From: a virus
Length of the DNA stretch: 64,000 nt
Reading direction: 5' to 3' (one strand)
IMG/VR virus record: IMGVR_UViG_3300020185_004010
Coordinates: 8,764 to 72,763 of that record
Shown: positions 24,362 to 61,211 of the stretch, one piece after another
Layout of the letters: each line of letters opens with the position of its first letter
How positions within the stretch are numbered: the stretch's first letter is position 1
The notes under the pieces: generated by a model
Database searches by the model: none
What the model was told of the DNA's origin: nothing
What the model saw: only the letters and a program-made list of their open reading frames with translations
Translations under genes and position numbers: made by a program

Positions 24362-25879
24362 TTAATATATGATTTTTTTTATAATTTTTGAAATAGACAA
24401 GCTTTCGTTTGTTGCTATTTTGCTCTTAAGGCTGTTAACTTTAGCTTTACTTTTGGCTGTTGTTGCTTTTTTTATTTTCTTAACCTTTGGTTTTGAATTT
24501 ATTTCTTTTTTTATGCTATCCATATAGCGTTGAGATACATTGTCAGCAACTATATTATTAATGACTTGTTGTCTAAAATTAGAAAAATAAGACATTATTC
24601 TATCTCTTTCTGCATCTTTATCCTTAAAAGTTTCGCCCTTTTGCTTAGGGTATAAGAAAGCTAATGCTGGGTAATTTCCATAACCATCTATCCTACCTTC
24701 TTTTGCTAGTCTTTTAAAAAAGTTTATATACTTAAAAAACCTTTCAGAATCTATATCTTCTATAAATTTTAAAACTTTTTCTGACAACTCTTTATCGTTA
24801 TTTAAGTCTATTTTATATCCACCAGGCATAGTTTTAAAGCCTGCTCTTTTTGTTTTTAAACTTAATTTACTAATAACTTCTTCCTCTTCGGAACTAGACG
24901 CTTTACCTCCTTCTGCTTCCTTTTCTTCGTAATCAGATGTTTTCACCTCTATTGACTGGACACCTTTGTCTACATCCACTACCCCAGGTATACTAAAAGT
25001 GCTTCCGACAGTTATGTTTGATGTTTCGAAATCACCTTCACTTCTATTATACATCTCCCAAGAAACATCTATACCATTTATCTTCATATTCAAAGAATCA
25101 TAATCAACTCCTTTATCTACTCTAAGCAAATGCTCTGTATCATTGTTATCTATTATCTTTATTTGTAATCCTTTTTTAACTTGTATAATAGATAACTTTT
25201 TGTGATTAGTGTTTTCTTTTGCCATCCTAAGACCCATTACAAATCCAGAACCAATAGATGAACCTCCTGACTTAAAATCCCAAGGCTCTATTTTATACCC
25301 ATCAGCACTACCCAAATAATAACCATCTATCATCTGTCCACCAGTAATAGCTCCACCCTTAAAGACGCCCATAAAAGCACCACTTAACCACTCTCCTCTA
25401 AATGTAATTAACTGCCCTTTTACGGCACCTCTAGCTTTTCTTTTAGATTTTGTTAATCCTAAAGTTTCAGCTTTCCAAGCTCCTTTAAACAACCACTTTA
25501 AAGAGGGATGAAGCTTTTCCACCTTTGACTGATTAGATGAGTGTACCAAAGTGCCTTTTGAATTTGTTTCTTTTTCATCAACTTCAAAAGCTAAAAAAGG
25601 AATTAATAAGTCATCAATTTTTTTAGAATAATTGTCTCCAACCTTGTAAAGACCAGGCTTTCCCATTGCTGCCTTTGTTTCACTTTTAGAACCCGAAGAT
25701 GCTACATAACTTTTATAGTTTTTATTTGGAGTTTTTGGGTCTGAACCTTTAGCATCAGAATCTGTATAACGATTTCCACCCAAACCAGAAGCAAAAGACT
25801 TTAACTTATGTCCAATTCCTCCTAGAATTTCATCCAATTTCTTATCAATATCCTCTATGTTATCTTCGTAATTATCCAT
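24362..25879 (-). CDS. Hypothetical protein, possible internal head protein
   Basis: 505-aa ORF with phage-like composition. N-terminal KKLDEILGG, Gly-rich GEWLSGAFMGVFKGG segment and C-terminal NESLSISKIIKKII. Confidence 0.6.
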   Translation of the reverse strand: MDNYEDNIEDIDKKLDEILGGIGHKLKSFASGLGGNRYTDSDAKGSDPKTPNKNYKSYVASSGSKSETKAAMGKPGLYKVGDNYSKKIDDLLIPFLAFEVDEKETNSKGTLVHSSNQSKVEKLHPSLKWLFKGAWKAETLGLTKSKRKARGAVKGQLITFRGEWLSGAFMGVFKGGAITGGQMIDGYYLGSADGYKIEPWDFKSGGSSIGSGFVMGLRMAKENTNHKKLSIIQVKKGLQIKIIDNNDTEHLLRVDKGVDYDSLNMKINGIDVSWEMYNRSEGDFETSNITVGSTFSIPGVVDVDKGVQSIEVKTSDYEEKEAEGGKASSSEEEEVISKLSLKTKRAGFKTMPGGYKIDLNNDKELSEKVLKFIEDIDSERFFKYINFFKRLAKEGRIDGYGNYPALAFLYPKQKGETFKDKDAERDRIMSYFSNFRQQVINNIVADNVSQRYMDSIKKEINSKPKVKKIKKATTAKSKAKVNSLKSKIATNESLSISKIIKKIIY

Positions 25880-31954: not shown

Positions 31955-33082
31955 TTAAATATTTTTAATTGTACTATCTATTTCATTGACTAAAAACATG
32001 CCCAAACTTCTCATTCCTAATTGTAAATCTTCCATCATGCCTAACAAAAACACTCTAACATTATCATCATTGTGCAAATCATAATCTGAATTATTTAATA
32101 TTTTGTCAATAACTTCACAGTGATTAACAAGTGATTTATATAGTATGCTAGGATTGTAATACCATAAAGACTTACTCTTATGATAAGCTAAAGCATTAGA
32201 GTTAAAATAATCTTTTGTGCTAACAATGATATCAATATCTATTAATTTTGAATAAGTTTCAGTTATAAACAAGCCTCCAGATTTAAGCAAAGACTCTTTG
32301 TTGAAAAGGTCTATTTCAAACTCTTTTTTTTGTAAATCATTAGAAAGAAGCATGCCAACCATAATGTTATAATATATTTTATAGTTTTTGTATTCAAAAA
32401 AATCATTTAAAATATTTATTATATCTTCAAATAAAACATCTTTTTTCCCTTTAAATTTCAATGTTGGTAAATATATTCTCCTAAGTTGAGAATCTATTTT
32501 TGGCTCTTCATGTTTCTTTTCGTTAATTATATCTAATAAAAGAATTTTTTTATCCAAATCACCCCTCAAAAACTTGCCCTTTATATGGTCTTCAAGTTCA
32601 ATTGAAGGTTTTAAATCTTTAGTGAACACCAATTCATCTGATTCATTTTCAAACAATCGGTTCATTCTCTTAAAATATTTCAATTTTGATTTTAATTTTG
32701 TGTAATCTTTTTCAGAAAAATCATGCATGTATGAAAAGCTTTTTTTACATAATTTTGATGATTTTAAAAATTTTGAAAACACAAATATAAAAAAGTCGTT
32801 TGCAGTCATTTTGACTCCACTAATCTTGTTTAAACTAGAAACATAATCATAAGACTCTCTTTCTTCAAAACATGATGCTATATTAAATCCGCTAGGATAT
32901 ATTATATCAGTTCTTTTTTTGCTGACAATATTATGCCTAAATCCAGAATCTTTTAACCAAAACATATTTTTAATAATACTTGGGTCTTGTTTGGTGTCTA
33001 AATTGTGCGGAAAATATAAATTTAATTTCCCATCTTTAATTTCGTCAAAAACATGGTTGTGAAGCATTTTTACATCTGCCAT
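31955..33082 (-). CDS. Hypothetical protein
   Basis: 375-aa ORF tightly coupled to recD2. I recognised no motif. Confidence 0.7.
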   Translation of the reverse strand: MADVKMLHNHVFDEIKDGKLNLYFPHNLDTKQDPSIIKNMFWLKDSGFRHNIVSKKRTDIIYPSGFNIASCFEERESYDYVSSLNKISGVKMTANDFFIFVFSKFLKSSKLCKKSFSYMHDFSEKDYTKLKSKLKYFKRMNRLFENESDELVFTKDLKPSIELEDHIKGKFLRGDLDKKILLLDIINEKKHEEPKIDSQLRRIYLPTLKFKGKKDVLFEDIINILNDFFEYKNYKIYYNIMVGMLLSNDLQKKEFEIDLFNKESLLKSGGLFITETYSKLIDIDIIVSTKDYFNSNALAYHKSKSLWYYNPSILYKSLVNHCEVIDKILNNSDYDLHNDDNVRVFLLGMMEDLQLGMRSLGMFLVNEIDSTIKNI

Positions 33083-33085
33083 ATC

Positions 33086-33451
33086 TTAAAGGTTTTCATT
33101 TTGTTCAACATCTTGCTCATTATCTTGCTCTCCAATTATTACGTCTCTATACATTTCTGCGGCTCTATTGCTAAGTATTACAAAATTAGCTGTTCCCCCT
33201 GTTCCTCTTTTGCGAATGAGTTTAGAATACTCGTCAATTCTAGAGCCTAAAAGCTTGTTCCACTCATTTGACATGTCTTCTCTTATTTTTTTATTAAAAA
33301 ACTCTAACAATAAAAATCTTTTATTTGGATTGTTTGAAGAAGGAACAGAACTTTGCGTCACATTAAAATGTGAAGTTCTGCTTTTTTTCGACATGTCCCA
33401 AATAGAGCTTTTATTCTTGTCTTTATTATTTTCATCTTCGTTTTTTAGCAT
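33086..33451 (-). CDS. Small protein containing a segment resembling T4-type major capsid protein
   Basis: EWNKLLGSRIDEYSKLIRKRGTGGTANFVILSNRAAEM resembles, from memory, the gp23-family segment W..TL...I...SN.I...T.RGGANF.V.S..VA. The CDS itself is well supported, the homology is tentative. Confidence 0.45.
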   Translation of the reverse strand: MLKNEDENNKDKNKSSIWDMSKKSRTSHFNVTQSSVPSSNNPNKRFLLLEFFNKKIREDMSNEWNKLLGSRIDEYSKLIRKRGTGGTANFVILSNRAAEMYRDVIIGEQDNEQDVEQNENL

Positions 33452-33459
33452 ATTATAAA

Positions 33460-33804
33460 TTAATTATCTTTTATTATCTTATGATTTTTAACGCCTTCTT
33501 TTTTAAAAGATTTTTGCTTTATCCTACTATAGTCCAATCCCAAATCCTTGAAGTACTCTTCCATTGTTGGAAGTGCCAAATTAAAGTAATCACATATAAT
33601 TTCTTCATACTCTTTCACTTCATCAGGCTCTAATCCTTCAGTTTCTATTTCAAACCCAGATACATATTTAACCTGCTCTTTCTCTATTTCAGCAAAAGAA
33701 TTGAAAGATTCTTTTAAAAATTTTGGAGCAATAATGTTTCTCACAGATTCTTTACCGTCTTTTTTGACATAATCAAATGTTATCTTCCTTATAAAGTCAG
33801 GCAT
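33460..33804 (-). CDS. Hypothetical protein, possibly WYL/SH3-like fold
   Basis: ITFDYVKKDGKESVRNIIAP resembles the WYL start (I.F.Y...G..S.R.V.P), followed by KYVSGFEI. Confidence 0.4.
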   Translation of the reverse strand: MPDFIRKITFDYVKKDGKESVRNIIAPKFLKESFNSFAEIEKEQVKYVSGFEIETEGLEPDEVKEYEEIICDYFNLALPTMEEYFKDLGLDYSRIKQKSFKKEGVKNHKIIKDN

Positions 33805-33847
33805 TTTAAACTATTTTAGATTATTAATAACTATTTATTTATAACAA

Positions 33848-33855
33848 CAAAAATA
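33848..33855 (-). promoter_or_regulatory. Possible Bacteroidota-type -7 element (TATTTTTG) for the 33804-29656 operon
   Basis: Plus strand caaaaata equals TAnnTTTG on the minus strand. No clear -33 element. Confidence 0.4.
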
Positions 33856-33872
33856 CGAAAAATAATATTGAT

Positions 33873-34355
33873 ATGAAAGAAAATAAGCTAATTTTAGGCT
33901 TTGAAAGCACTCAAGAATTATTTAGCTCTATACTAGGATTAAAAAATTCATTCATTAATTTCATACTAGCAGTGTGTACTGCTTTTACCTCCTTTGTCAC
34001 ACAATACATATGGGATGACGCTTCTGCTGTATATTTTTTACTGTTCTTAATAATAGTAGATGCTGGTACTGGTGTATGGAAATCTGTAAGAAATAGAACA
34101 TTTAGCAGTAGTAAACTTCCTAGAGTTTTAGTTATATCAATAATATATGTTTTAATGCTAGCTATAAGTTGGAATGCCGCAAAGCATTCAGAGCTTTTTT
34201 TGTGGCTTCCTGGTATGGTTTACGGAGGTCTAGTTGGAACTCCATTAGTTTCTATATATGAGAACTTTGCAGAACTAGGGTATGTGCCAAAAGGGTTGCT
34301 TTATGACATAAAAGAAAAGATAAAAAGTTATTTTAATAAAAAATATAAGAATTAA
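33873..34355 (+). CDS. Phage holin (holin_4_1 / toxin-secretion holin-like)
   Basis: Three hydrophobic segments, LIIVDAGTGVWKS...FSSSKL, SIYENFAELG and a basic C-terminus. Confidence 0.75.
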   Translation: MKENKLILGFESTQELFSSILGLKNSFINFILAVCTAFTSFVTQYIWDDASAVYFLLFLIIVDAGTGVWKSVRNRTFSSSKLPRVLVISIIYVLMLAISWNAAKHSELFLWLPGMVYGGLVGTPLVSIYENFAELGYVPKGLLYDIKEKIKSYFNKKYKN

Positions 34356-37300
34356 TATATTCTTCTAAACTGGCATCCGTCTTGGAATTTTAACCAATTT
34401 CTATCCTTAGAAAATTTAGTTAAATATATCCCTCCTTTTTCAACTAAGTCCTTTATTCTATCGTAAGCGTCAGACCAAACTACCATTCTAACACTTTCTC
34501 CACCATCACTTAATTCTAATGACCAATATTTTTTATTGTTTCTAGAAATTTTTTCAACAATATCCTTTATAACAAAGTAATAATATTTATCAGGGTTTTC
34601 AAAAGAAGTTACAGGTTCAACATTAAAATCATATTCATCCTTAAATTGTTTTTTTAATTTTGAAATTTTATTAAATAATTGCAAATCTAAACTACAAACG
34701 TCTATAAAATCTTTGTATTTAATATCTTTAGGGGTTGGCTCAAACTTCTCTTTAAGACTTTCTTCTATTATGTCAAACCTATTTTGACCAAATAAGTCCA
34801 TTTGCATAGTATTGCTTTTTATTTTAAACTTACGAAATTCCATAAGCTCTTCTCGAGACTCTGACCAATCATCAAAGACTCCCGCCTTTAAACAGGATTC
34901 GAAATTTGCTTTATTAAACTTTGAAAATTTATGCATAAAAAACTTATCTTTACCTACATTAGCAATATCTATTTTTTGCAATTCATCATAAGCAATTTCT
35001 CCCATTCCATTTATGCTAGAAAACCCCATCAAAATAGTTTCTTCATCTAACATTCCCCACTCCCACTTTGACTTTCTATTAGGTGGTAACACTTTTATGC
35101 CTTTAGCAAAGGCCGCCATTATAGCAGAGGACAACCAAGACTCATCATCTTTCGCATGATTTAATAATGCTGCATAAAATTCAGTAGGATAATACCTCTT
35201 CATAAACAAAGTTTGCATAGCAACATAACTGTAACTAACTGAATGTGAGCGATTAAAACTATAACCCAAATATTTAACAAGCCACTCTTCAATGTCCTTT
35301 ACTTCATTTTCCTTAAGACCTTTTTCTTTACAGCCCAACTTAAATTTATCCCAAAGAACTAAATACTCTTTATAGTTCTTATTGTTATATTCTTTTTCTT
35401 CTAACTTATCCCCAGACAAATTCTTTTTGATTATTTTAGAAGCCTTATCCATTACCTTTCTAAGATTATCACCTTCTCCCAAAGTCATACCAGCCAATTC
35501 ATGAGCAATAAACATAAGTTGCTCTTGAAATATTAATACTCCATTAGTATTTCTTAATAAAGGCTCTAAAGAAGGGTGTACTAAACTTATTTCTTCTGGG
35601 TTCTTCTTGTTTCTTATATACTCCTCATGAGCACCAACGCCCATAGGGCCAGGTCTGTAAAGTGCATTTGCAGCCACCATCTCTTCGAAACTTTCTGTAT
35701 GCATCTTTTTTATTAACTTAGACATTCCGTCTGATTCAAACTGAAAAACCCCTTGATTATTTCCTCCTCTTATCTCTTCAAATAAGTCTGAATTATCTAA
35801 ATCAACATATTTAACCTGTTCTGAAATATCTATACCTCTATTTTCTTTTACTAGTTTAATAGACTCTTTTAATATATTTAAAGTAGTCAAATTAAGCCTG
35901 TCAAGTTTTAATATGCCCAAATCAGATAAATCTTTACCACTTCCAGATTCTTGAAACCCAGAAACAGTTACTCCTTTTACCATATTTACTGGCATATACT
36001 CCCATACTGGGCCTGGTGTTATTACAATTCCAGCTGCATGTTTACCCAAATTTCTAACTTGACCTTGTAAAGTCAAGGTTGTATCCATAGTTTTTTTGTT
36101 AGCTGGATTTTCTATCCAACCCTTCACTAAATCAGATGCTTCTGGTGTTTTGGGGTGTTGTTCTAGCCAATCTTTTAGGTCGCCATCATATTTCATAAAC
36201 ATTTTAGGCATCTCTTTGGTTACTGCGAATATTTCGGAATCGAAACCCGCATCTCCTCCAAATGCTTTAACAACATCTTTTATACAACCCTTCTCGTTAA
36301 ATGTGGAAAATGTAATAACTGGGAATACGCACTCTTTTCCATATTTATTATATAGAAATTCATCAGTTTTCACGTCAGAGCCTGTCTCAAAATCTATGTC
36401 AATATCGGGTGGAGAATTTCTAGCTGGGTTTAAGAATCTCTCGAAATACAAATCAAACCTAAGAGGGTCTATTTTGGTAATGTCTAAACACCATGAAAGA
36501 AGACTTCCTGATGCACTTCCCCTTCCCGGACCAACTTCCACATCATTGTCTGCACAAAACCTAATAAGTTCCCATACAACCAAAAAATAGTCTAACATCT
36601 TCTTTTCTTTGATTACTTTTAATTCGTAATCTAACCTCTCTCTATATTTAACAACTTTTTCATCATCTATGTTGATTGGCCCTCTATCTTTATATATATT
36701 AAGTTTTTGATTTAGTTTTGCATGTGACAATCTTCTAATTATCTCTTCTCCATCATTGGTTCCAAAGTAATCGTAAACATCTTTAGTTGGTTTATACTTA
36801 GGATACTTTTCTACATCTGTCTCAAAATCAAAATTACATATAGAAGCAATTTTATCACTCGTAACCATACACATATTGATAAAGTCTTCACTATAATTAA
36901 ATTCATAGTCATTATTCATTTCTAAAATTTCAGACTTACCAACATAGTACATATCCCTACTATCTTTGGTTCTTGCTCTTTTTATTGACCTCTTTTGATT
37001 TATTGAAATCAAAACATCTTGAAGCACTTTATCTTTTTTTTCTGGGTAATATATGTCATTTGATATAATGATAGCCATATTGTACTTGTCAGACATGTTA
37101 ATAATGAAATTATTATAATTTCTTTGAACCTCATTGTCCTCCATTGATATTTCTGCTATATAAGACTTTTTACCAAATACATTTAGCATGTTTACTAAAT
37201 AATCTTCTGCATCTTTGTATTTGCCCATTTGCAAATACTTAGATATGGTTCCATTCTTTGAAGAAGTGGTCAACATTAGCCCTTCTTTATTTTCTAAAAT

Positions 37301-38335
37301 CCATGAAGTTTTTATTCTAGGAACCCTATAAAACCCTTCTGCAAATGATAAATAATTTATCTTATTAATATTAACGAAACCTTCTTTATTTGTAACAATT
37401 ATTTTCTGAATAACGTTTTTATCTTGCTGCTTGGGTTCATGTTCACCGCCTATGCTATCATTTAAGTGAAATTCACAACCTATTATAGGTTTTATATTTT
37501 TAGACTTACACTTTTGATAAAAAGAAAAGGCGCCAGACATACTGCCCTTATCAGTTAGCACTAAAGCTTTATGATTATGCTTTTTTGCTAAATCAACATA
37601 ATCAGATGTGCTACCAGCACCCTCTAAAACAGAATGATAAGTGTGAACTCCGAAATTAACCATAGACAACTCTTCGCTAAACTCTCCATTTTTAGACTTC
37701 CACTTATTAATCATGTTTTTTTGAGAAACATTTGAATATGTGTATTCTTTAAAATCTTCTCCAAACCCTAAAACCCCTATTCTTCTGAGCTCAAAAAAAC
37801 ATCTAGCCAAAGCCTCTACATCAACCAATGCATCATGAGCATCTTCAAATGCTTTATTAAATAATTTTTTATGTAATTCGGTAAGAGATGGAGGTTTTAA
37901 TCCCATTTTACCTTGTATTCTACAAAAGTCTATAGTTGAATTCATAGTACATATATTAACTATATCTCTCATCGAATTTTTCATGTTTAATCTAAAAAAT
38001 TCAGAAGCTGTAACTTTATTGTCAAAACTAATATTATGAGCTACAATAAAATTTGAATTTTCTAAATCTTTTGAAAATGCTTCCAAAACGCTAGAAATTG
38101 ATTGACCTTCTTTTTTTGCTCTCTCGTTAGTAATTCTATGAATTCTGATACTATCATCTGGTATTATAAAACCGTCTGGTCTTACTATTCTATTGTTGGA
38201 ACTAATTACTTTTCCATTTATATCATATACTTTCCAGGCCAACTGCACTATTCTTGGCCAATTATTAACATCACTAACTGGTGCGCTAAAATCTTCAGGA
38301 AGACCTGTGGTTTCTGTGTCAAATACTATAAACAT
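34352..38335 (-). CDS. dnaE: DNA polymerase III alpha (family C) with N-terminal DEDDh 3'-5' exonuclease
   Basis: Exonuclease motifs FDTETTG, AHNISFD, HDALVD. PHP domain (HTYHS, TDKG, GCEF). GPGRGSASGSL, FERFLNP, PDIDIDF, GVFQFES, LYRPGP, YSFNRSHS, QMDLF, C-terminal OB fold. ATG at 38335 preferred over the TTG at 38344. Confidence 0.95.
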   Translation of the reverse strand: MFIVFDTETTGLPEDFSAPVSDVNNWPRIVQLAWKVYDINGKVISSNNRIVRPDGFIIPDDSIRIHRITNERAKKEGQSISSVLEAFSKDLENSNFIVAHNISFDNKVTASEFFRLNMKNSMRDIVNICTMNSTIDFCRIQGKMGLKPPSLTELHKKLFNKAFEDAHDALVDVEALARCFFELRRIGVLGFGEDFKEYTYSNVSQKNMINKWKSKNGEFSEELSMVNFGVHTYHSVLEGAGSTSDYVDLAKKHNHKALVLTDKGSMSGAFSFYQKCKSKNIKPIIGCEFHLNDSIGGEHEPKQQDKNVIQKIIVTNKEGFVNINKINYLSFAEGFYRVPRIKTSWILENKEGLMLTTSSKNGTISKYLQMGKYKDAEDYLVNMLNVFGKKSYIAEISMEDNEVQRNYNNFIINMSDKYNMAIIISNDIYYPEKKDKVLQDVLISINQKRSIKRARTKDSRDMYYVGKSEILEMNNDYEFNYSEDFINMCMVTSDKIASICNFDFETDVEKYPKYKPTKDVYDYFGTNDGEEIIRRLSHAKLNQKLNIYKDRGPINIDDEKVVKYRERLDYELKVIKEKKMLDYFLVVWELIRFCADNDVEVGPGRGSASGSLLSWCLDITKIDPLRFDLYFERFLNPARNSPPDIDIDFETGSDVKTDEFLYNKYGKECVFPVITFSTFNEKGCIKDVVKAFGGDAGFDSEIFAVTKEMPKMFMKYDGDLKDWLEQHPKTPEASDLVKGWIENPANKKTMDTTLTLQGQVRNLGKHAAGIVITPGPVWEYMPVNMVKGVTVSGFQESGSGKDLSDLGILKLDRLNLTTLNILKESIKLVKENRGIDISEQVKYVDLDNSDLFEEIRGGNNQGVFQFESDGMSKLIKKMHTESFEEMVAANALYRPGPMGVGAHEEYIRNKKNPEEISLVHPSLEPLLRNTNGVLIFQEQLMFIAHELAGMTLGEGDNLRKVMDKASKIIKKNLSGDKLEEKEYNNKNYKEYLVLWDKFKLGCKEKGLKENEVKDIEEWLVKYLGYSFNRSHSVSYSYVAMQTLFMKRYYPTEFYAALLNHAKDDESWLSSAIMAAFAKGIKVLPPNRKSKWEWGMLDEETILMGFSSINGMGEIAYDELQKIDIANVGKDKFFMHKFSKFNKANFESCLKAGVFDDWSESREELMEFRKFKIKSNTMQMDLFGQNRFDIIEESLKEKFEPTPKDIKYKDFIDVCSLDLQLFNKISKLKKQFKDEYDFNVEPVTSFENPDKYYYFVIKDIVEKISRNNKKYWSLELSDGGESVRMVVWSDAYDRIKDLVEKGGIYLTKFSKDRNWLKFQDGCQFRRIY

Positions 38336-38341
38336 ATGACA

Positions 38342-38349
38342 CAAATATA
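38342..38349 (-). promoter_or_regulatory. Bacteroidota-type -7 element 6 nt upstream of the dnaE ATG
   Basis: Sense strand TATATTTG-TGTCAT-ATG. Confidence 0.55.
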
Positions 38350-38394
38350 AGATTTATAATTCTGAAGGGCAATTTTTTTATAATATTTATATGT

Positions 38395-39003
38395 ATGAAT
38401 TTAATTTCTAAAGAAGAGTTTAAAAGACTAGACCTAAAAAAACAAAAAGAATTTTTAGACTATCTCATATATCTAAGGGGAGGTATAGATGAATATTTTT
38501 TCAAAAAATTAAACAAATCACAAAAGCAGGATTATATAGAAAACAGAATAAAATCTGCAGACTGGCTCGAGGATTATGAATTTACGATAATGTCTAACAA
38601 CCAAAAGCAAAGATATATATTTAGAAAAAGGTTTCTAACTAATTCTGAATTTTTGAAACTAAACGACACTCTTCAAGAGTATTATTTACAAATGGCATCA
38701 TATATTAAACTTCAATTAAATGATAGTGAATTTAATATATTAAGCCCAAAAATGAAATCTTTATATTGCAACTTCACCTTTGAATTCCCTCTAGTTTTAG
38801 ATGTTGAAAAAGTTAAGTTCTTAAATAAGAATAATCAAAAAAGGTATATAGAAAAACAAATTGAAAGAGGAGTTTCTTTTTCTGAAAAACAATATAGAGT
38901 TTTACCCCCATTAGCTAAAAAAGAATATGATAAACTAAAAAAGTCTAACCTCAATGAAATTAGACTTTTTGTTAGAAATTTTTTATCAAAAAACTTACAC
39001 TAA
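38395..39003 (+). CDS. Hypothetical helical-repeat protein (about 7 units of about 27 aa)
   Basis: Repeating (L/I)xxxEFxxL xxxQKxxY(I/L) units. Preceded on the plus strand by TATTTATA (38384-38391). Confidence 0.7.
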   Translation: MNLISKEEFKRLDLKKQKEFLDYLIYLRGGIDEYFFKKLNKSQKQDYIENRIKSADWLEDYEFTIMSNNQKQRYIFRKRFLTNSEFLKLNDTLQEYYLQMASYIKLQLNDSEFNILSPKMKSLYCNFTFEFPLVLDVEKVKFLNKNNQKRYIEKQIERGVSFSEKQYRVLPPLAKKEYDKLKKSNLNEIRLFVRNFLSKNLH

Positions 39004-39299
39004 GAATAGTCGCTTTGATTGTCTTCTCTCTGCTTTAAGATACTAGACCTTAACTCAACACATAACTTTCTTATTTCATTTAGATTGTTTCTTGCATCTA
39101 TTGAAGCGTCTACAGTTCCTTTAAACATAAACTTATATAACCTAGGCTCAGTTTTTTCTATTAAAAATTTTATTTTTTGAAAAATTTCATCAATATTATA
39201 GTCATCATCTTCAACATTTTTATTGTCTAAAGAATTTGAAACTTTTTTTAATCCTAACCTTTTATCTCTTATTTGTTTTTTTAAATCATCGTAACCCAT
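39000..39299 (-). CDS. Histone H1-like (Hc1-type) small helical DNA-binding protein, putative
   Basis: FQKIKFLIEKTEPRLYKFMFKGTVDASIDARNNLNEIRKLCVELRSSI matches the pattern of the Bacteroidota/phage Hc1-like family (KF..KG...A...AR..L.E...L..ELR) as I recall it. Confidence 0.5.
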   Translation of the reverse strand: MGYDDLKKQIRDKRLGLKKVSNSLDNKNVEDDDYNIDEIFQKIKFLIEKTEPRLYKFMFKGTVDASIDARNNLNEIRKLCVELRSSILKQREDNQSDYS

Positions 39300-39316
39300 A
39301 AAATAATTTTTAATAA

Positions 39317-41155
39317 TTAATTTTCAGACTCTATGTCATTTCCTTCATTGAGCAAATCGTTGCCCTCATCATCCAACCCTGTCTTCTCGTCTATACTATT
39401 TAATTTAATTGTTATTGAATCCATTAAACTTTTGGTTTTAGTATTTAAATTTTTATTTTTTCTATTTAAAACATCTGGCCTAACTCCTTCGCTCTCATCA
39501 ATTACATCTAAATTAATTTTTTTAACATCTTGTTCTTGGAATAAAACATTTTCTGCCAACGGCTCATCTACAGCAGGCTCGTCTGCAGCAGGCTCATCTA
39601 CAGCAGGCTCATCGTTGCTTTCAAAATCCTCAGAGCCAGTATCGCTTGGGGCAACATCGCTTGACCCTTCCTCTCTTGCTTTAAATTTCTCATCAATATC
39701 TGAAAAGAGTCCTGTTTGCATATACTCTTCTGGTGCGGTCTCTATCTCTGAGAACATTTTTTTCTCTACTTTTTTCTGTCTTAATATTTGTTTTATTTCC
39801 GCTTTGGAGAATCCCATAACATACTCCATGGCCCAAGTATAAGATACTGGTGAAGTTGGTTCTGCAGTATACATTTCCTTAAAAACTTCAAGCCTAGCTT
39901 TCATAGTTTCCAGCTTCAATAACTCTTGTTGTGTAGATGGGTTGGTTAATTTTAAATCAAAATTATCCATGTCATCCTCAAATCCTAATAGAAATAAATG
40001 GACGTTTGCAATTCTTCTAAGCTCAATTATTACATTTTCTTGTATTCTGTTTATAGTTCTACTAAACCTCAAATCAGCCTGAGACAAAGCTGAACCGCCA
40101 GGCATAGATTCTGCATAATTCAAATAAGGCTTTGGCACTTTTAATGCTGCAAAAAGTTTATTTTGCAAATATTCAACATCTTGTATTTCACCCAAATTAG
40201 AAGCTCCTGGAAGTGTTTCTATTCTTGAAGACTTATCTCCTCTTATAGGAAGGAAATAATCCTCCTCCATTGTCAGTGGATTATACTTCAAATTCATTTG
40301 ACCTGTCTTTTGGTCTACAATGGGGGATTTTTTCAGCTCTCTTTTTATTCTTTCTACATATTGTTGAACATCTGCAGACTCTAGGTTACCAACTTCAATA
40401 TAATGAACCCTTCTTTCTGGGGCTCTAATAATTCTATATACCAACATAGCATCTTCAGCTAATTGAAGCTGTTTCCACAACTTTCTAGCTGGGTCTAATA
40501 CACTTCTGCCATATGGCAATTTAGTACCGTCAGAAACTAATCTAAAGTGAGCTATTTGGAATTCTTCAAAATACATATTGTTGATGTCCCACTTAAATCT
40601 AGAAGAGTTTACATTTCCGTCAAATGCTTCCTCTCTGTGAATTTCTGCTACTGGCAACATTCTTACGTCATAAATACCTTCTTGCTGGTCTATTTCTAGT
40701 TTTGCAAAAGCATCTCCAAACTTAATCATCTCTCTAATCCAGAAAGTTAAATTATATTCTATATTTAACCTACTGTGAAACAAATCTTTTAATACAGTTT
40801 TTATTCTGTCGTTTTCAGAATATATTGATAATATATCCCCTCTCTCATCTCTGGTAACTGTTTCATCTGTTATTATGTCTAATGCAGCAGATACTTCTGG
40901 GGACATGTCCATAGCTCTGTAGTCATTATAAGCTCCCAGTCTATCGGTGTCATAATAAACGCTCCTAGAATATATGTCTTGAGCAATCTTTTGAGATTGA
41001 ACATCCAGGAAGTCTTGTTGCCTCTGTTGTATTGGGGTTGATTTAGGGCTAGCCATATTGCCAGAAAGAACTTGTTTTTCTTGTGGCAAAGGCCTAGAAG
41101 TTCTTCCCCTTTTTAGTCTGTCCAATAAATTTATAAATATACTATCTTCTGCCAT
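39317..41155 (-). CDS. Portal protein (T4 gp20-like)
   Basis: PEVSAALDII, LAEDAMLVYRIIRAPERRVHYIEVGNL, EDYFLPIRG..SRIETLPGASNLGEIQDVEYLQNKLFAALKVPK. Confidence 0.95.
   Translation of the reverse strand: MAEDSIFINLLDRLKRGRTSRPLPQEKQVLSGNMASPKSTPIQQRQQDFLDVQSQKIAQDIYSRSVYYDTDRLGAYNDYRAMDMSPEVSAALDIITDETVTRDERGDILSIYSENDRIKTVLKDLFHSRLNIEYNLTFWIREMIKFGDAFAKLEIDQQEGIYDVRMLPVAEIHREEAFDGNVNSSRFKWDINNMYFEEFQIAHFRLVSDGTKLPYGRSVLDPARKLWKQLQLAEDAMLVYRIIRAPERRVHYIEVGNLESADVQQYVERIKRELKKSPIVDQKTGQMNLKYNPLTMEEDYFLPIRGDKSSRIETLPGASNLGEIQDVEYLQNKLFAALKVPKPYLNYAESMPGGSALSQADLRFSRTINRIQENVIIELRRIANVHLFLLGFEDDMDNFDLKLTNPSTQQELLKLETMKARLEVFKEMYTAEPTSPVSYTWAMEYVMGFSKAEIKQILRQKKVEKKMFSEIETAPEEYMQTGLFSDIDEKFKAREEGSSDVAPSDTGSEDFESNDEPAVDEPAADEPAVDEPLAENVLFQEQDVKKINLDVIDESEGVRPDVLNRKNKNLNTKTKSLMDSITIKLNSIDEKTGLDDEGNDLLNEGNDIESEN
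39561..39613. repeat. 15-nt tandem repeat (3.5 copies) encoding DEPA(V/A) in the portal C-terminal tail
   Basis: ggctcatctacagca / ggctcgtctgcagca / ggctcatctacagca / ggctcatc. Confidence 0.9.
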
Positions 41156-41166
41156 TTTTATTTTTA

Positions 41167-41859
41167 TTAATAAATATTAAGTTTTTCTTTTTTAAGCTCT
41201 GTAGAAGGGTTTTTATAACACCTTAAACTAACCGAATGAGGCATTCGACCATTAACTGCACTTACATTTAGAGAATCTTTTTTTTCTATAAGTAAATCTT
41301 TTTTATAAAATTCTAAAGCATTATTTAATTTAAAGTGAAAATTTTGAAAATTTAAATCACTTATTCCTCCAAGTGAAGATATGCATATTAACTTTCCTTT
41401 GCTTGTTAATGCTTGTGATGCATAAGTCAATATATGTTCTAAATTTTTATGATAAGCAGCTTCATCTATAATGATAACATCAAACTTTGCCCCTCTTAAC
41501 TTGTAGTAATCTTGTATAATTTTAAAATAAGAACCTTCTAAATACAAATCTTTTCTATTAACTCTTAAATTATTTTCACAATAACCTCTCAATAAAAATC
41601 CTAATTTTTTTAAAAAATTTTCTGAAGAACTATCAAAACCAAAATAAGCTATACTTTTTCTATCATTTGAAAGTTTCATTAGTGAAGCTACATAATACAA
41701 AATAACAGTAGTTATGCCTGCCTGTCTTGGTTTGATTACAGAAACTACATAATTATTTATAATCGCATTTAGAATTGATTTTTGATTTAAATCAAAAACA
41801 GACTTTAAGCGATTTTTCTGACTCAAACAATCTTTTATTTTATTTAATGTGTTTGTCAT
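41167..41859 (-). CDS. Terminase large subunit ATPase-domain-only paralog
   Basis: Walker A-like VIKPRQAGITT, Walker B DVIIIDEAAY, KGKLICISS. No RNase H-like nuclease domain. 230 aa. Confidence 0.75.
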   Translation of the reverse strand: MTNTLNKIKDCLSQKNRLKSVFDLNQKSILNAIINNYVVSVIKPRQAGITTVILYYVASLMKLSNDRKSIAYFGFDSSSENFLKKLGFLLRGYCENNLRVNRKDLYLEGSYFKIIQDYYKLRGAKFDVIIIDEAAYHKNLEHILTYASQALTSKGKLICISSLGGISDLNFQNFHFKLNNALEFYKKDLLIEKKDSLNVSAVNGRMPHSVSLRCYKNPSTELKKEKLNIY

Positions 41860-41899
41860 TTTATGACAATAAAAGTCTTTTTTTTTAAAAGTAAATAGA

Positions 41900-43561
41900 C
41901 TATGCTTTTATAGGACCATAAAGCCATGAAGTGTCATTAAAATCATCATCATCATCCCAATTTTCTTTTTTAGAACCATCTAAACTTAATGAACTAACAT
42001 CCTTCTGACTAAAGCTTATCATGTCCAGCATCTCTTTTGTTTTCTTTTTATTCCAGAAAACAGATTCAAATTCTGTATCTCTAATTAATAAAGCAATAGC
42101 AAGTGCAAAAATTAAATCATCATTAAATCCATTCTCATGCTCTGCCTTGTCTCCTTTATATATAAAAGTTTCAAATTCAATAAGTAGTCTAAGAGAGTTT
42201 ATTTTAATTTCCATGTCTCTCATGTATTTGACTAAAGAACTCATAAGTAATGGCCTAGTCTTTACCGTAGTCTGAAACCCTGGTACATCAGTATCTTTGT
42301 CAACAACATAGTTATGAGTTCTATTGTATAGCTTAACTGCAGACTTAGATATGTACATTCTGTCTTTGGGGTATTTTAAGGTGTTTTTTAACATTAAAGT
42401 TGTGGCCAAACCAAAACTATTACACTCTATTGCCATGAATGCATTATTATATTCAGTCCCCACTTTATACAAAAGGTCTGCAAATACATCTGGTACTATT
42501 TTTCCTTGAAATTCACCAACTTGCTCCAAGCTATCAGCATCTATTATTTGAACTGTCGAAAAATCGGCACCATCTCCTCTACCAACATCACCGCCTATTA
42601 TATAGTTTCCGTCTTCTTTTGGTTTTTTCCAAATATGAAAAGATGTTACATAGTCGCAAAATCCACTATCTTTTTTCTTAAAGTCATAGTAACAAATTGG
42701 CTTCTTGTCACCTATGTCTTTAACATACTTTTGAATTATTGAACTATCTATTACAACGGCAGTAGAGCCTTCAAAAGACAAATCTAATTCTTGAGCAATT
42801 TTAACTGTATTATGATGCATCCTTTGACATTCACCCTCATACCAAGGGCTCCAAGGATATTGTTTGCCATCAGAATCTGTACGAGTTTCAAGCTCTTTAG
42901 ATAATATTGGATGCATTGACCAATGTAGTTTAATTGGTACAAAATTTCCTTTTCCTTTATTTGCTTGATTCCAAGTTTGATGATATAAATTTCCTGTACC
43001 TTTTGGTGTAGAAATCATAATGCACTTACCTTGAGTTGCTGCCAAAGCCAATCCAGCACCCATCCATATATCTTGAGCGTGCTCAATAAATGCAGTTTCA
43101 TCTAATATTAAGCAAGTTAAAGACTCACCTCTACCAGCCTGTTTACTACTAGCAACAGCCTTTACCCAAGAACCATTAGAAAAAGATATTTGCTTGGTAT
43201 TATTTATTAACGTTTCTTCTGGCAACATCCAATCTGGTAATCTGTCCAAAAACTGTTTAACGGTATTTAAAAATCTAACAGCACCATTACCACTGTCAGC
43301 AACTACCAATATTCTTTCATCAGGACAAAAAGTTAACCTCCAGGCGACATATAGTGCTGATATAACTGAAAGTCCCATCTGTCTAGATTTAAGTACTATT
43401 GAGTTTTGATTATCATTGAACTGATTAAGACAATCTTCTTGATAAGGAAAACATGTCATCTTTCCTATCTGCTGTTTCTCCATGTCAAAAACATATCCAT
43501 ATGTATTTGCAAAATGAACTGGGCTTTTTACACACTTAACATATTCTTCAATATAATTCAT
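41900..43561 (-). CDS. terL: Terminase large subunit
   Basis: VLKSRQMGLS, LILDETAF, MISTPKG, nuclease GGDVGRGDGADFS, IECNSFG, NDDLIFALAI. Confidence 0.95.
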   Translation of the reverse strand: MNYIEEYVKCVKSPVHFANTYGYVFDMEKQQIGKMTCFPYQEDCLNQFNDNQNSIVLKSRQMGLSVISALYVAWRLTFCPDERILVVADSGNGAVRFLNTVKQFLDRLPDWMLPEETLINNTKQISFSNGSWVKAVASSKQAGRGESLTCLILDETAFIEHAQDIWMGAGLALAATQGKCIMISTPKGTGNLYHQTWNQANKGKGNFVPIKLHWSMHPILSKELETRTDSDGKQYPWSPWYEGECQRMHHNTVKIAQELDLSFEGSTAVVIDSSIIQKYVKDIGDKKPICYYDFKKKDSGFCDYVTSFHIWKKPKEDGNYIIGGDVGRGDGADFSTVQIIDADSLEQVGEFQGKIVPDVFADLLYKVGTEYNNAFMAIECNSFGLATTLMLKNTLKYPKDRMYISKSAVKLYNRTHNYVVDKDTDVPGFQTTVKTRPLLMSSLVKYMRDMEIKINSLRLLIEFETFIYKGDKAEHENGFNDDLIFALAIALLIRDTEFESVFWNKKKTKEMLDMISFSQKDVSSLSLDGSKKENWDDDDDFNDTSWLYGPIKA

Positions 43562-43576
43562 AATAATGCTTATTAT

Positions 43577-43584
43577 TATAAATA
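43577..43584 (-). promoter_or_regulatory. Putative phage late-promoter motif TATTTAT[A/T] (representative copy upstream of terL, at least 16 copies in the window)
   Basis: Sense-strand copies at 235, 16374, 20415, 23637, 26397, 29138, 41169, 43577, 44542, 47371, 58162, 58750, 61247, 62015 (minus strand) and 33836, 38384 (plus strand). Confidence 0.65.
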
Positions 43585-43653
43585 CTAAGTAATTATTAAA
43601 ATACTACACAGGGTCTGAAAAGCATTTTTTGATTAATAAGACCGTGAAATGTG

Positions 43654-44181
43654 TTAGGCTGGGTAATTGTTCATATTCTTTAAAGTCTTAGGTTCTAATG
43701 TTACAGAAATTTGTTTTTTACAACCTTGTCTTCTGTAATAGAATATGGGCTCTTTTGGTATGCAAGATATTAAATTAATCCTTATCCTTTTTTTAAAATT
43801 TCTATTAATAACATAAACATGTATATCTTTAGATTTTTTATTAAAAATATTTTGCTCGTAGTATTTGTTTTTTTTGTTATAAAAGCTGTATATCCAATCA
43901 TTTATCTCAGAACCATTTGTAGAGCCATTGTTACTAATGATATGAAATTTATAATTGTGGTTCGTGTATATATCTGGTGCGTATGAAGAGTTTATTAATT
44001 TATTATACTCCATTGCAATTGCTAAAACTTGACTATTTATTTCTGAGTATGGGTCAAAATCAATAATAACATAACCATTCCAAAGGTCATCACTATTTAA
44101 ATCAAACCTTTCAGTCAATAAAACACTATTAGCATATAAATCTTTATATAAAGGAAATAAAGAAACATTAGAATCTTTCAT
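43654..44181 (-). CDS. Hypothetical protein, possibly a degenerate tail-tube-fold paralog
   Basis: INDWIYSF...SKDIHVYVINRN...RINLISCIPKE...ISVTLEP parallels the C-half of the tube gene (VMEWVR...KKNLVLKALD...WTMIGCFIT...VKINVQPD). Confidence 0.4.
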   Translation of the reverse strand: MKDSNVSLFPLYKDLYANSVLLTERFDLNSDDLWNGYVIIDFDPYSEINSQVLAIAMEYNKLINSSYAPDIYTNHNYKFHIISNNGSTNGSEINDWIYSFYNKKNKYYEQNIFNKKSKDIHVYVINRNFKKRIRINLISCIPKEPIFYYRRQGCKKQISVTLEPKTLKNMNNYPA

Positions 44182-44220
44182 TTACTAAAAATATATAATA
44201 ACAAAAAAAAGTAAATAAAA

Positions 44221-44538
44221 TTACAATCCTACATATATTGTTGGAGAAGGATTAATGTCAGATTCACTTTTTACAGAATATATTTCAGAAACATATACAA
44301 CACTAGTTGTAGTATTTTCTATATTCAACTGATAAATTCCTAAAGTAGATGCAGACCATGAAATTGAATAAATCCCTTCTGATGGACTTGAGAGAACAGA
44401 ATTAACAGTGACACCAGTATTTACAGCGCCATCAGTATAAACTGTTGAACTAAAAGTTGCTGGTGTAACTGGTGTGTTCGTTGTAGGATTAAACGACCTT
44501 ACCAATTCGTATACTGTTTGACCTGTTGTTATGTTCAT
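44221..44538 (-). CDS. Small Ig-like virion protein
   Basis: Beta-rich sequence with GIYSISWSASTLGIYQL, preceded by TATTTATA 3 nt before the ATG. Confidence 0.6.
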   Translation of the reverse strand: MNITTGQTVYELVRSFNPTTNTPVTPATFSSTVYTDGAVNTGVTVNSVLSSPSEGIYSISWSASTLGIYQLNIENTTTSVVYVSEIYSVKSESDINPSPTIYVGL

Positions 44539-44559
44539 GTATATAAATATTATATTTTT

Positions 44560-58232: not shown

Positions 58233-58721
58233 TTAAGCGTTCAATAAGCATCTATCTGGCTGTACATTAATCTTAACTTTTGAAATATCATCTGCTGAAT
58301 AGTCGTAACTATCAAAAGATGCATTTGTTATAAAACATCCAATCATTGTCCATTTTTCAACTTCAACTCCTACTGGGTCGAGTGCTTTTAATACTAAATT
58401 CTTTTTGTAACCTACTGCGTAACCCATTCTACCTGTAGCAGATTCAGCATGAAGTCTTACCCATTCCATTACTTTCTGAGTAGTCGATGGTCCTATAACA
58501 TCAATAAATTCAATGTCAATTGCTGACCACTTATATCTACCAGCAACGAATGTACTAGTGTTCATATATTGAATTTCAGTACTACCGATTTCGATTGTAG
58601 GTTTTCCAGAAGTTTGAACGTTAAAAGATTCTATTCCCAACTCTGAAGGAAATTCTAATACGAATCTATTTTTTCTCTTTGGCTCCTGTTCTACAGGAAC
58701 TGGTCTAAACATTGTAGCCAT
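58233..58721 (-). CDS. Tail tube protein (T4 gp19-like)
   Basis: EPKRKNRFVLEF...GRYKWSAIDIEFIDVIGPS...MEWVR...TGRMGYAVGYKK...EKWTMIGCF. ATG at 58721 preferred over the GTG at 58748, which would overlap the upstream motif. Confidence 0.9.
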   Translation of the reverse strand: MATMFRPVPVEQEPKRKNRFVLEFPSELGIESFNVQTSGKPTIEIGSTEIQYMNTSTFVAGRYKWSAIDIEFIDVIGPSTTQKVMEWVRLHAESATGRMGYAVGYKKNLVLKALDPVGVEVEKWTMIGCFITNASFDSYDYSADDISKVKINVQPDRCLLNA

Positions 58722-58830
58722 CTTATAGTTATTTAATTTGTTTAACACTTATAAATATTAAGCAAAAAAAATTATTTGACTATATTTAAATTTTTTTTAA
58801 AAAAAAATACACTTGATATTATATATATAT

Positions 58831-58877: not shown

Positions 58878-61211
58878 TTAGAAATCTTCAAATCTTGCAC
58901 CAGTTGGTAGAACTTGGAAAGTTAAATCTATAAATTCAGCAGTTCTAGTAGGTTTCAATTGAATCTTACCAACTAAAGTGTTTCTATCTACAACTTCAGG
59001 TGGATTGTTAGTTTCGTCCATTATAACTCTAAATCCAGTTAAACCTCTTTGGTTTTGGATTTGCAATAATAATGGTTCAACTTTAGATAAGAATTGGTCT
59101 CTTAAAGTTTGGTCATTTTGTTCAAACAATAAAGTTTGAGATGTTGCAGCAACCACTCTTCTAATTTGAAGAAGTAATCTTCTTACGTTAATTCTATCAA
59201 GAGCAGACTGTCTAACTTGTAATGTTTTTTGACCATATATTACTACTCCGTTTTGAACAAATGTTGCTATCGGATTAATTCTTCCTTCATATAAAGTGTC
59301 TCTATCAGCTTGGCTTAATTTAATGTCAGCTCTTCTAACTGAATCTCCAACAGTACCTCTGTTGATACCTGCAGGTGCAAACCATGGGAATGCTACATTG
59401 TCTGTTAAAGCTATAGACTTAACAACTTCTGCAGTTGGAGCTAAATATACAAACTGACCAGTTGTTTGGTCTTCTATTTGAACCCAAGGCCAGTAAGTAG
59501 CAGCATAATTTGAATCTATACCAGTATCTTGCATAGCTAAAACAGCTTCTTCTGGAGTTCCTTTTGCAACACTAGTAGTGAGTCTAGGTGAATCTATAAT
59601 ATAAAGAGTGTCAGCTCTATCTTCCATGATGTTAAGAGCATACTTAACTATTTCTTCATTATTTCCATAATCAACCCCTGGTGTTGCAAACAAGTTAACG
59701 TCTACCTCTTCTGGGTTTGTGAATACATCTATTGCCTCTTTGAATGCTTCTCTATTAGATGAGTCTGAAACATTTACACCAAATGTAGGTGTTTTAAATT
59801 TGTTCCATCCATCAAATCCTCCAGCAGGAGCAAATGTGAATTTTCTTTCAGCTTTAGTATATCCACTTAATGGTAAGTCTCCCGAAACAAATCCAGAAGG
59901 TGCACCACTTTCAATGTGAAATCCTGGTATAGTTGTATTTCCAGCACTTCCTGTTCCGATATATTTAAATTTGTCTGCTTCTACAGTATTTATTACATTT
60001 GAAAAGCTGACCTTATCTGCAGTAAATGCAGTATAAGCTAATTCAGATATACCTAAGAATGTTTTATTTACTGAGTCTCCTGAAAAGTAAGATTTCTTAT
60101 AAAAGAAAGGTGCAGCAGTTGTTCCTGCTTCAGCCTCAACTTGACTATACCCTTCAAAACCTGCTGGAACAACGTTACCAGGGTGTCCTTCTTTCATGTC
60201 AAGAGTGATAAATAAAGATTGTCTTGGATATTCCTCATCAGTTGTACCAATTACTCTAGCTATATAATTTCTTTGAGTTGGGTCCATTGTTACTCCTCTA
60301 AATCTCTCTAAAGCAGTTTGGAACGCAGATGAATCAGTGTCATTAAAGTCTCTCACTAATACATCAAAAGTTTTTGTAATTGTATCTATGTTTGTAATAG
60401 ATATTTTAATTTCTCTATTTGCAGCATTACCATCAGATACTGATTGGCATTTAAATAACTGTCTAACTTGACCACCTACTAAATTAGATACAACCCAAGG
60501 TGATGAAGGGTTTGTATAAGGTCCATTAAAATCAGTATACCTTGCATCACTTGAGAAAGTAATAGAATCTGAAATTCCCGTTATAGAACCTTCCTGAACA
60601 GCTTGTCTTAAAAAGTGAGGAAATATAGTATCTACATATATTCCATAATCTCCTTCTATTTTTTTAGGATTTCTACCTATAACATTAACGATATAATCAT
60701 CTCTACTCTCATCTAGTGAAACGTTTAATGTGTTTGCTGAAAAGTCTCCAGTTGAACCACTTAACACGAAAGTTCCTAGCGGAGATGTAGAAACGCCTTT
60801 TTCAATATCAGTTGTAACAGTGTTTAAGAAAGTTAATCCTTCGTCATTAGATTTACTTTTTATTACAGCTATAATAGCTCCGTCTTCTATTGTACCTCCA
60901 CTTGGAGATGTTGCCGTAAGAACCCATGCGTTAGAATCATCAAATCCTTCTTTTCCAAGAACTCTAGTTACAGTTAATTCATTTGATTGTGTCAAGAAAG
61001 AATTTGCCACATAAGGCAGTTGTAAGTCCGAGCTTGTTCCACCAAATCTAAACAAGTATTCATCTGTGCTTCTCACACGGACTGGTTCAAATGCTGGTCC
61101 TTTTTGCGTTAATCCAACAAGTCCTAACTTAGTTAGACCTACTCTTGATGCGAATACAGAAAAATCTTGTTCTCTTGTGTAGACACCGGGCGATACGAAT
61201 ATAGTTGCCAT
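58878..61211 (-). CDS. Tail sheath protein (T4 gp18-like)
   Basis: FVSPGVYTREQD, GGFDGW, NLFATPG, YAATYWPW, PWFAPAGINRG, RINPIA, GQKTLQ...ALDRINVRRLLL, PTRTAEFI. Confidence 0.95.
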   Translation of the reverse strand: MATIFVSPGVYTREQDFSVFASRVGLTKLGLVGLTQKGPAFEPVRVRSTDEYLFRFGGTSSDLQLPYVANSFLTQSNELTVTRVLGKEGFDDSNAWVLTATSPSGGTIEDGAIIAVIKSKSNDEGLTFLNTVTTDIEKGVSTSPLGTFVLSGSTGDFSANTLNVSLDESRDDYIVNVIGRNPKKIEGDYGIYVDTIFPHFLRQAVQEGSITGISDSITFSSDARYTDFNGPYTNPSSPWVVSNLVGGQVRQLFKCQSVSDGNAANREIKISITNIDTITKTFDVLVRDFNDTDSSAFQTALERFRGVTMDPTQRNYIARVIGTTDEEYPRQSLFITLDMKEGHPGNVVPAGFEGYSQVEAEAGTTAAPFFYKKSYFSGDSVNKTFLGISELAYTAFTADKVSFSNVINTVEADKFKYIGTGSAGNTTIPGFHIESGAPSGFVSGDLPLSGYTKAERKFTFAPAGGFDGWNKFKTPTFGVNVSDSSNREAFKEAIDVFTNPEEVDVNLFATPGVDYGNNEEIVKYALNIMEDRADTLYIIDSPRLTTSVAKGTPEEAVLAMQDTGIDSNYAATYWPWVQIEDQTTGQFVYLAPTAEVVKSIALTDNVAFPWFAPAGINRGTVGDSVRRADIKLSQADRDTLYEGRINPIATFVQNGVVIYGQKTLQVRQSALDRINVRRLLLQIRRVVAATSQTLLFEQNDQTLRDQFLSKVEPLLLQIQNQRGLTGFRVIMDETNNPPEVVDRNTLVGKIQLKPTRTAEFIDLTFQVLPTGARFEDF

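Follow-up and report, generated by a model that had tools for sequence, protein, structure and literature searches.

Introduction

Avs-type immune sensors read conserved, essential virion folds that are hard for phages to mutate (PMC13581612). The published sensor targets are the terminase ATPase (Avs1-3, Upx), the major capsid protein (MCP; Avs7/8/10), the tail tube (Avs16, DSR2) and the portal (Avs4, Avs11) (PMC13581612, PMC13601566, PMC11263360). Here we analysed three open reading frames (ORFs) in a 64,000-nucleotide stretch of viral DNA, referred to as the window (positions 8,764 to 72,763 of the IMG/VR record IMGVR_UViG_3300020185_004010). They encode an ATPase-only paralogue of the terminase large subunit (TerL), a tail-tube paralogue and a fragment of MCP. 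A sequence-only reading of the window had proposed that these non-assembling proteins act as decoys or competitive inhibitors of such sensors. We found that the three families have one short peptide motif in common, hereafter the tag, which appears to be new. In the literature searched, mostly outside subscription journals, there was no account of a decoy set of structural paralogues nor of this tag.

T4 vs.8 and the TerL paralogue are both ATPase-only paralogues of the TerL of their own phage, with Walker A and B kept (PMC13601566). However, vs.8 activates EcAvs2 on co-expression and no tag has been reported for it (PMC13601566). A tblastn search with the TerL paralogue in 50,697 deposited phage records gave no match at E 1e-3, so that orthology of the two is no more than possible. 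DSAD1 of SPbeta phages has been shown to occupy the sensor site for the tail tube, as we propose for the tube paralogue (PMC11263360, PMC10981675). For DSAD1, a dedicated competitor, binding is proven. The tube paralogue, in contrast, is truly paralogous to the tube of its own phage, from which it has diverged, and it belongs to a set that covers several virion proteins and shares a tag. A third comparison is Tad3, an inhibitor of type I Thoeris (PF25185; PMC13728456), as a Tad3-family protein of a relative, G005, carries the tag at its C-terminus. Tad3, however, blocks ThsB directly, its other homologues are untagged, and the three ORFs of the window are unrelated to it. The capsid targeting sequence of T4, with its gp21 site, is likewise a short peptide on unrelated proteins that ends in hydrophobic-x-E, but the tag is not confined to the N-terminus and is depleted from genes with a late motif. 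SspB-type adaptors tether targets to ClpX. The tagged proteins may resemble proteolysis adaptors (ClpS, ClpP in jumbo phages, PMC7824862) in combining a target-binding module with a docking peptide for an AAA+ protease; known adaptors are single proteins, whereas here more than 100 unrelated proteins share one peptide. By analogy, the paralogues would act like the mimicry-based anti-defence of DSAD1, and they resemble vs.8 in their anatomy; membership in either group is no more than conceivable. They are not TerL, MCP, an assembling tube, a capsid-targeting signal or pseudogenes.

Paralogues of terminase, tail tube and capsid protein

The TerL paralogue matched the N-terminal ATPase of the adjacent TerL with 28% identity over 177 columns (E 1e-9) and the PHROG terminase with E 2.4e-6, and it aligns with residues 167-316 of T4 gp17. 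The Q motif (Q26), the Walker A residues of the clade (K43, R45, Q46, G48 and T50) and Walker B (D132, E133) are kept, and in real TerL the positions Q26, K43, R45, Q46, G48, D132 and E133 are conserved. Judged by these residues, the paralogue does not appear to be catalytically dead. Its TerL homology stops near residue 175-190 of 230 and a C-terminal nuclease with an RNase H fold is lacking; the members of the family and the syntenic orthologues, 215-283 aa long, end in stop codons. With the ATPase half present and the nuclease half missing, it would not qualify as a complete terminase large subunit. From the tree of the ATPase domain, in which branches are long, the number of times that the paralogue arose cannot be read. 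In G005 (IMGVR_UViG_3300014205_000170, a complete 519-kb relative) it is located 160 kb away from terL. The last 11 residues are invariant, probably because the TATTTAT motif of the portal gene overlaps the 3′ end. They were rejected as a protein motif because of this overlap and because the same DNA persists in a lineage from which the gene is deleted.

The tail-tube and capsid similarities had been by-eye calls in the sequence-only reading, and both now have statistical support, as does its ATPase-only TerL paralogue. No match to the intact tube was obtained when the tube paralogue was compared by pairwise BLAST. The profile of its 21-sequence family retrieved the intact tube (E 3.2e-6) as the sole other match in the proteome, and hhalign aligned the family with the intact tube over 132 columns (E 3e-5). 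When 21 sequences were supplied, the AlphaFold model reached a pLDDT of 79, compared to 32 with 10 close sequences, and it has the beta-sandwich tube/Hcp fold with one helix. Hcp/tube proteins made up most of the top 50 structures matched by the model (best Z 8.4, root-mean-square deviation 4.2, 124 aligned), among them Hcp, PVC/AFP and phage tubes. Foldseek alone returned nothing for the model at E <= 0.001. Sequence searches of the PDB with the tube-paralogue and MCP-fragment profiles gave no match, and searches of the ESM Atlas gave unnamed or chance matches only. The ring-stacking hairpin, which lacks about 11 residues compared to the intact tube, is modelled as a short helix and a loop, suggesting that the tube paralogue would be unable to polymerise.

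Other tube-like ORFs were seen in this group of phages. Three distant relatives have a second tagged tube-like ORF beside the first (L012:533-985, L013:9430-9936 and L123:7070-7525), of which the one in L012 matched phrog_4542 with E 0.001. A 154-aa ORF at G000 5759-6223 (L204:5759-6223, minus strand; about 2.5-3 kb before the window start) is conserved in seven of eight genomes, begins with the tag KRKLILEK and gives a weak tube-like signal (E 0.06-0.17). It is possibly an older tagged paralogue with the tube fold.

Since the MCP gene lies outside the 79-kb contig, the MCP sequence was taken from relatives; the relative used for the comparison, G001, has a TerL 89% identical to that of the window. 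Residues 62-104 of the 121-aa ORF matched the G001 MCP with E 2.9e-7, the top match among 259 ORFs, and single members of the family are 38-40% identical to MCP over 42 residues. The segment aligns with a helix-strand-helix in the C-terminal half of T4 gp23, which we take to be the A domain. The remainder of the ORF is not capsid-like, and with 43 of about 520 residues matching, a complete HK97 fold (E-loop, P and A domains) is not present. The ORF is the second gene of a non-structural operon, in the order 114-aa ORF, MCP-fragment ORF, 375-aa ORF and recD2. No CapRel escape mutation within this segment of gp23 was confirmed in PMC9712102.

Downstream of the MCP fragment, a 375-aa orphan (31955-33082) matched no family. 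An apparent dCMP deaminase of G006 (16446-17321) is fused to the same MCP segment (E 4e-16) and has no tag. In G003, two further tagged ORFs weakly resemble this MCP helix (54019-54507, E 0.075) and the scaffold protein (24157-24462, E 0.007).

A peptide tag shared by the three families

The motif common to the three families is [KR]-x-V/L-L-[ILTV]-E-K. All 17 members of the TerL-paralogue family carry it, as do remote paralogues, and it is absent from real TerL. In the MCP-fragment family it is found in 10 of the 12 members, where it forms the best conserved block and ends in EK in the distant L013 orthologue. The full motif occurs in 13 of the 21 members of the tube-paralogue family (e.g. 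KRKLILEK near the start), and E24 is nearly invariant.

When searching the genome of G005, the strict tag was found in 132 of 700 ORFs of <=300 aa, compared to 6.3 expected (maximum 15 in 200 shuffles), with the consensus T/K-R-x-V-L-[ITLV]-E-K. Larger ORFs of this genome had it in 5 of 127 cases (2.9 expected). Small ORFs of G000 (4/40), G003 (8/92) and G008 (7/38) exceed the 0.35-0.85 expected; the tag is also enriched in G004 and weakly so in G001 and G006. In G005 the tag is N-terminal in 35 proteins, C-terminal in 63 and internal in 34. At the tag, synonymous codons are used as in the genome on average, and therefore selection acts on the protein; a DNA-level origin was ruled out on the same grounds. 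A late motif lies upstream of 1 of 163 tagged small ORFs and of 54 of 537 others (p 7e-6).

Fragments of structural proteins were surveyed blind to the tag, with hidden Markov models of 53 core families over eight proteomes. In G005 seven fragments of virion proteins were found, namely three different pieces of MCP, a portal, a prohead-protease and a TerL ATPase fragment, and a second copy of the tube. Five of these seven have the strict tag (binomial p 0.004), compared to none of the 12 non-structural paralogue matches; with a wider tag pattern all seven are tagged (p 4e-5, background 24%). In G001, too, a tagged fragment is encoded that derives from the portal segment seen in G005, so that this piece is kept in two genomes. 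As the MCP pieces stem from separate regions of MCP and the tube copy of G005 lies far nearer to real tubes than the tube paralogue of the window, the combination of fragment and tag arose more than once. The retained fragments match the published sensor targets, that is terminase ATPase, MCP, tube and portal.

Nearly all of the 127 tagged proteins of G005 are orphans. A homologue of the anti-Thoeris family Tad3 (268856-269506, E 3e-27) has the tag as its C-terminus, and none of the eight readable Tad3 homologues of other phages carries it. From these distributions, the shared tag appears to tie the three paralogues to a much larger accessory system.

The tagged small orphan ORFs of G005 (about 130-170, loci L212-L237) often stand in tandem arrays. 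About 1.1 kb past the window end, a 223-aa P-loop protein (G000 73869-74540; L205:2870-3541, plus strand) has the internal tag KRLLTEK and weakly resembles a degenerate DnaB/RecA-type ATPase (E 0.06). RecA-type ATPases are targets of Avs20. Two short tandem ORFs at G000 75668-76336 begin in a tag-like manner with KHILLE, and G003 has an ORF related to them.

Table 1. Positions of the paralogues, their parts and the intact genes in the window.
Feature	Position	Strand	Remark
MCP-fragment ORF, 121 aa	33086..33451	minus	low-complexity N-terminus, then tag, then capsid-derived segment
MCP segment, aa 62-104	33140..33268	minus	homologous to MCP 364-406 of G001
Tag variant KRFLLLEF, aa 44-51 of MCP-fragment ORF	33299..33322	minus	before capsid segment
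TerL paralogue, ATPase only, 230 aa	41167..41859	minus	no nuclease domain; between terL and portal
Tag KKDLLIEK, aa 186-193 of TerL paralogue	41281..41304	minus	where ATPase homology ends
Tail-tube/Hcp-fold paralogue, 175 aa	43654..44181	minus	about 11 residues shorter than real tube in stacking beta-hairpin
Eroded tag VLLTER of tube paralogue	44107..44130	minus	without upstream basic residue
Conserved element: TTTACT, 17-18 nt, AT-rich hexamer	41866..41895	minus	35-36 nt before TerL-paralogue ATG; four lineages
Same conserved element	44188..44215	minus	34 nt before tube-paralogue ATG; four lineages
Late motif TATTTAT of portal	41169..41176	minus	inside 3′ end of TerL paralogue
Intact TerL, 553 aa	41900..43561	minus	late motif upstream
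Intact T4-like portal	39317..41155	minus	context gene
Intact tail tube	58233..58748	minus	late motif upstream
Intact sheath	58878..61211		in the window

Evolution of the three ORFs

All three ORFs are kept in place in relatives. Homologues of the tube paralogue at 20-24% identity are still located directly before terL. At one of these loci a TerL paralogue also precedes the portal gene, and a second tube-like ORF is present. The ratio of non-synonymous to synonymous substitution rates (dN/dS) was 0.23-0.55 for the TerL paralogue, 0.10-0.36 for the tube paralogue and 0.15-0.80 for the MCP fragment, compared to 0.03-0.04 for TerL and 0.04-0.09 for the portal. The three paralogues are thus under purifying selection, yet evolve about 5-10 times faster than TerL. 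Their frames are intact, and neither a dN/dS near 1 nor a broken frame, as in a pseudogene, was seen.

Alleles of the TerL paralogue are exchanged between lineages. Between the window and L004 its synonymous divergence (dS) is 0.05, whereas that of the flanking TerL and portal genes is 1.2-1.3. The reverse is observed between L003 and L004, with a dS of 0.92 for the TerL paralogue and 0.21 for TerL. The lineage of L007-9, L011 and L014, whose TerL is 89% identical, has neither the TerL nor the tube paralogue, and of the MCP-fragment ORF only the N-terminal 61 aa, the half with the tag, remain. Because they evolve fast under constraint, are exchanged between lineages and have been lost from one, the three ORFs are accessory genes, not core genes and not pseudogenes.

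Upstream elements and expression

The late motif TATTTAT precedes terL, portal, tube, sheath and other virion genes. Within 80 nt upstream of the three ORFs it was not found before any of them, whereas the tube-paralogue orthologue of the distant G008 has one. Read-through from upstream late promoters may also reach the three ORFs. The TerL and tube paralogues are preceded by a conserved element of their own (Table 1), which is probably a separate, non-late promoter. A scan of 41000-44700 for the sigma-70 consensus gave 21 sites, with 21.2 expected by chance, and the case for this element therefore rests on its positional conservation in four lineages. From these upstream regions we infer that the three ORFs would be expressed earlier than the virion genes or separately from them.

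Tagged baits as a proposed explanation, and alternatives

Our explanation, which we hold plausible but put forward tentatively, is that the three ORFs encode tagged baits against immune receptors that sense virion proteins, and that these receptors are neutralised through a shared reader of the tag. The ORFs would encode accessory proteins that are not part of the virion and consist of two elements, the bait, which is a piece of a core phage protein that is sensed, and the tag. The bait would occupy pattern-recognition sensors of the host (Avs/STAND, Upx, DSR2- or TIR-type), and the tag would recruit one common partner that keeps the complex of bait and sensor from firing, either by sequestering it or by delivering it for unfolding or degradation. 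Candidate readers are the ClpC of the clade, its two ClpP, DnaJ and Hsp20, or a machine of the host. The core of the clade includes these phage proteins, the ClpC being without a Clp_N domain, and G005 has an FtsH-like protease in addition. A complex prediction of G005 ClpC with a tagged MCP fragment scored 0.00, which counts neither for nor against binding. In a wider version, which we consider rather doubtful, bait plus docking tag would be a modular, genome-wide system of adaptors that hand captured sensors to an AAA+ protease or chaperone of the phage; if so, the recycled pieces of virion proteins and many other binders may be natural targeted degraders of bacterial immunity.

In G001, the ClpC without Clp_N is encoded beside ClpP and DnaJ at 50190-53001 (L024), and a second ClpP-like gene is found at 32903-33466 (L023). 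Orthologues of these genes are present in G003, G005 and G006.

Several observations weigh against the bait explanation. EcAvs2 and Upx respond with strong activation to terminase ATPase domains on their own, and T4 vs.8, a natural ATPase-only protein, is toxic with EcAvs2 (PMC13601566). A bare look-alike should therefore trigger such sensors and not block them. A protective bait needs an extra step, and the partner recruited by the tag would supply it. Avs sensors enclose entire folds, and Avs16 binds the tube hairpin (PMC13581612), which is shortened in the tube paralogue. The 43-residue MCP piece is a poor mimic of a fold, and the main contact of CapRel is the spine helix of the P-domain (PMC9712102), not the retained segment. 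The tag itself is eroded in the tube paralogue of the window and not enriched in G007, and two MCP-derived ORFs of G006 lack it, though this phage encodes ClpC. The wider tag pattern, by which all seven structural fragments of G005 are tagged, was defined after two cases had been seen, and the background was recomputed accordingly. Only 1 of the 127 tagged G005 proteins matches a known anti-defence family. Finally, the rate alone is not diagnostic, as the 375-aa ORF next to the MCP fragment evolves just as fast (dN/dS 0.24-0.36).

The decoy idea of the sequence-only reading is thus kept in part. The ORFs are genuine, maintained non-core paralogues of proteins to which Avs, DSR2, CapRel, Upx and Thoeris-type systems respond, they are without assembly parts, their evolution is arms-race-like, and their tag recurs on the Tad3-family protein of a relative. 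The plain competitive inhibitor is weakened by the activation of EcAvs2 and Upx by ATPase-only proteins (PMC13601566). That the ORFs are such plain decoys, antagonists like DSAD1 on which the tag is incidental, appears quite improbable to us. DSAD1 does compete with the tail tube protein for DSR2 (PMC11263360), and divergence could have tuned the paralogues to bind without activating. Nevertheless, all three families conserve the tag, and it recurs on independently derived fragments. Somewhat less improbable, but still unlikely, is a role as weapons against competing phages, in which the fragments would bind or co-assemble with structural proteins of a co-infecting relative and the tag would remove the complex. 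A paralogue of an oligomerising protein that lacks the parts for assembly is a natural dominant negative. Several of the fragments retain subunit-contact segments (the different MCP pieces, and the portal piece of two genomes), and fast evolution with allele exchange fits any conflict. On the other hand, the phage would risk poisoning itself, and besides the Tad3 homologue about 150 proteins with no relation to virion parts carry the same tag. We give no more credit to the idea that the ORFs regulate or chaperone assembly of the phage's own virion, by timing packaging or by keeping hold of monomers of the tube or capsid; the tag would then mark early proteins in general for turnover or sorting. 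The ATP motifs are conserved, and the TerL and tube paralogues flank terL in the morphogenesis cluster even at 20-24% identity. Yet they are lost from a lineage with an 89% identical TerL, the G005 TerL paralogue is far from terL, and their rate relative to the cognate core genes and their exchange across lineages are unusual for such partners.

Two further explanations have little to recommend them. Decaying, functionless remnants of old duplications are scarcely credible, and this reading is already largely refuted by dN/dS values well below 1. Loss or truncation in one lineage and some MCP-fragment pairs that reach a dN/dS of 0.8 would agree with it; however, frames stay open and synteny is kept down to 20-30% identity, dN/dS is mostly 0.1-0.4, the ATP motifs and the fold are conserved, the genes have a conserved upstream element of their own, and a tag was acquired. 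It is also very unlikely that the ORFs are minor virion components, for instance a tube ring of a special kind or an internal protein that is packaged; the tag would then be a site of the [ILF]-x-E type for capsid targeting or for the prohead protease. T4-like tails contain the tube-fold paralogues gp3, gp48 and gp54, which were among the structural matches of the tube paralogue, and L-x-E is compatible with the cleavage rule of T4 gp21. A capsid-targeting signal, however, would be N-terminal and on late, packaged proteins, whereas the tag takes all three positions, the late motif is missing upstream of the three ORFs and of tagged genes generally, and the ORFs are dispensable in close relatives.

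If the tagged-bait explanation is true, a standing set of look-alikes of the sensed proteins would be a general answer of large phages to Avs-type sensors, and genes like T4 vs.8 may gain a role from it. The tag would then serve as a handle for discovery. The tagged orphans of one complete genome are a candidate pool of anti-defence proteins, one of them belonging to a known family, and the retained fragments may point to epitopes read by sensors still to be described. A change of two residues in the tag would separate the bait alone from the bait with its partner.

Genomic context of the window

The source record is a 79-kb contig, about 28% complete, which from its genes is an uncultured T4-like jumbo myovirus. 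It encodes DnaE, a PolA-like protein, ribonucleotide reductase, DnaB, a RecA-like protein, a T4-type portal, TerL, sheath, tube, hub and tape measure. The intact TerL and tube genes that the sequence-only reading had placed elsewhere in the window are present (Table 1). No cultured phage is close, the top TerL matches being 31-33% identical (Microcystis phage Mel-JY01 and Flavobacterium immuto phages). Elements similar to TAnnTTTG precede nrdA, nrdB, polA and one sigma gene, which suggests a Bacteroidota host.

In several relatives dnaE and terL are interrupted or enlarged (L005:15239-20798, L009:14003-18506, L012:1577-3874, and terL of L122/L123). Examples are an endonuclease ORF within dnaE and TerL proteins of 972-1013 aa, the size expected with an intein.

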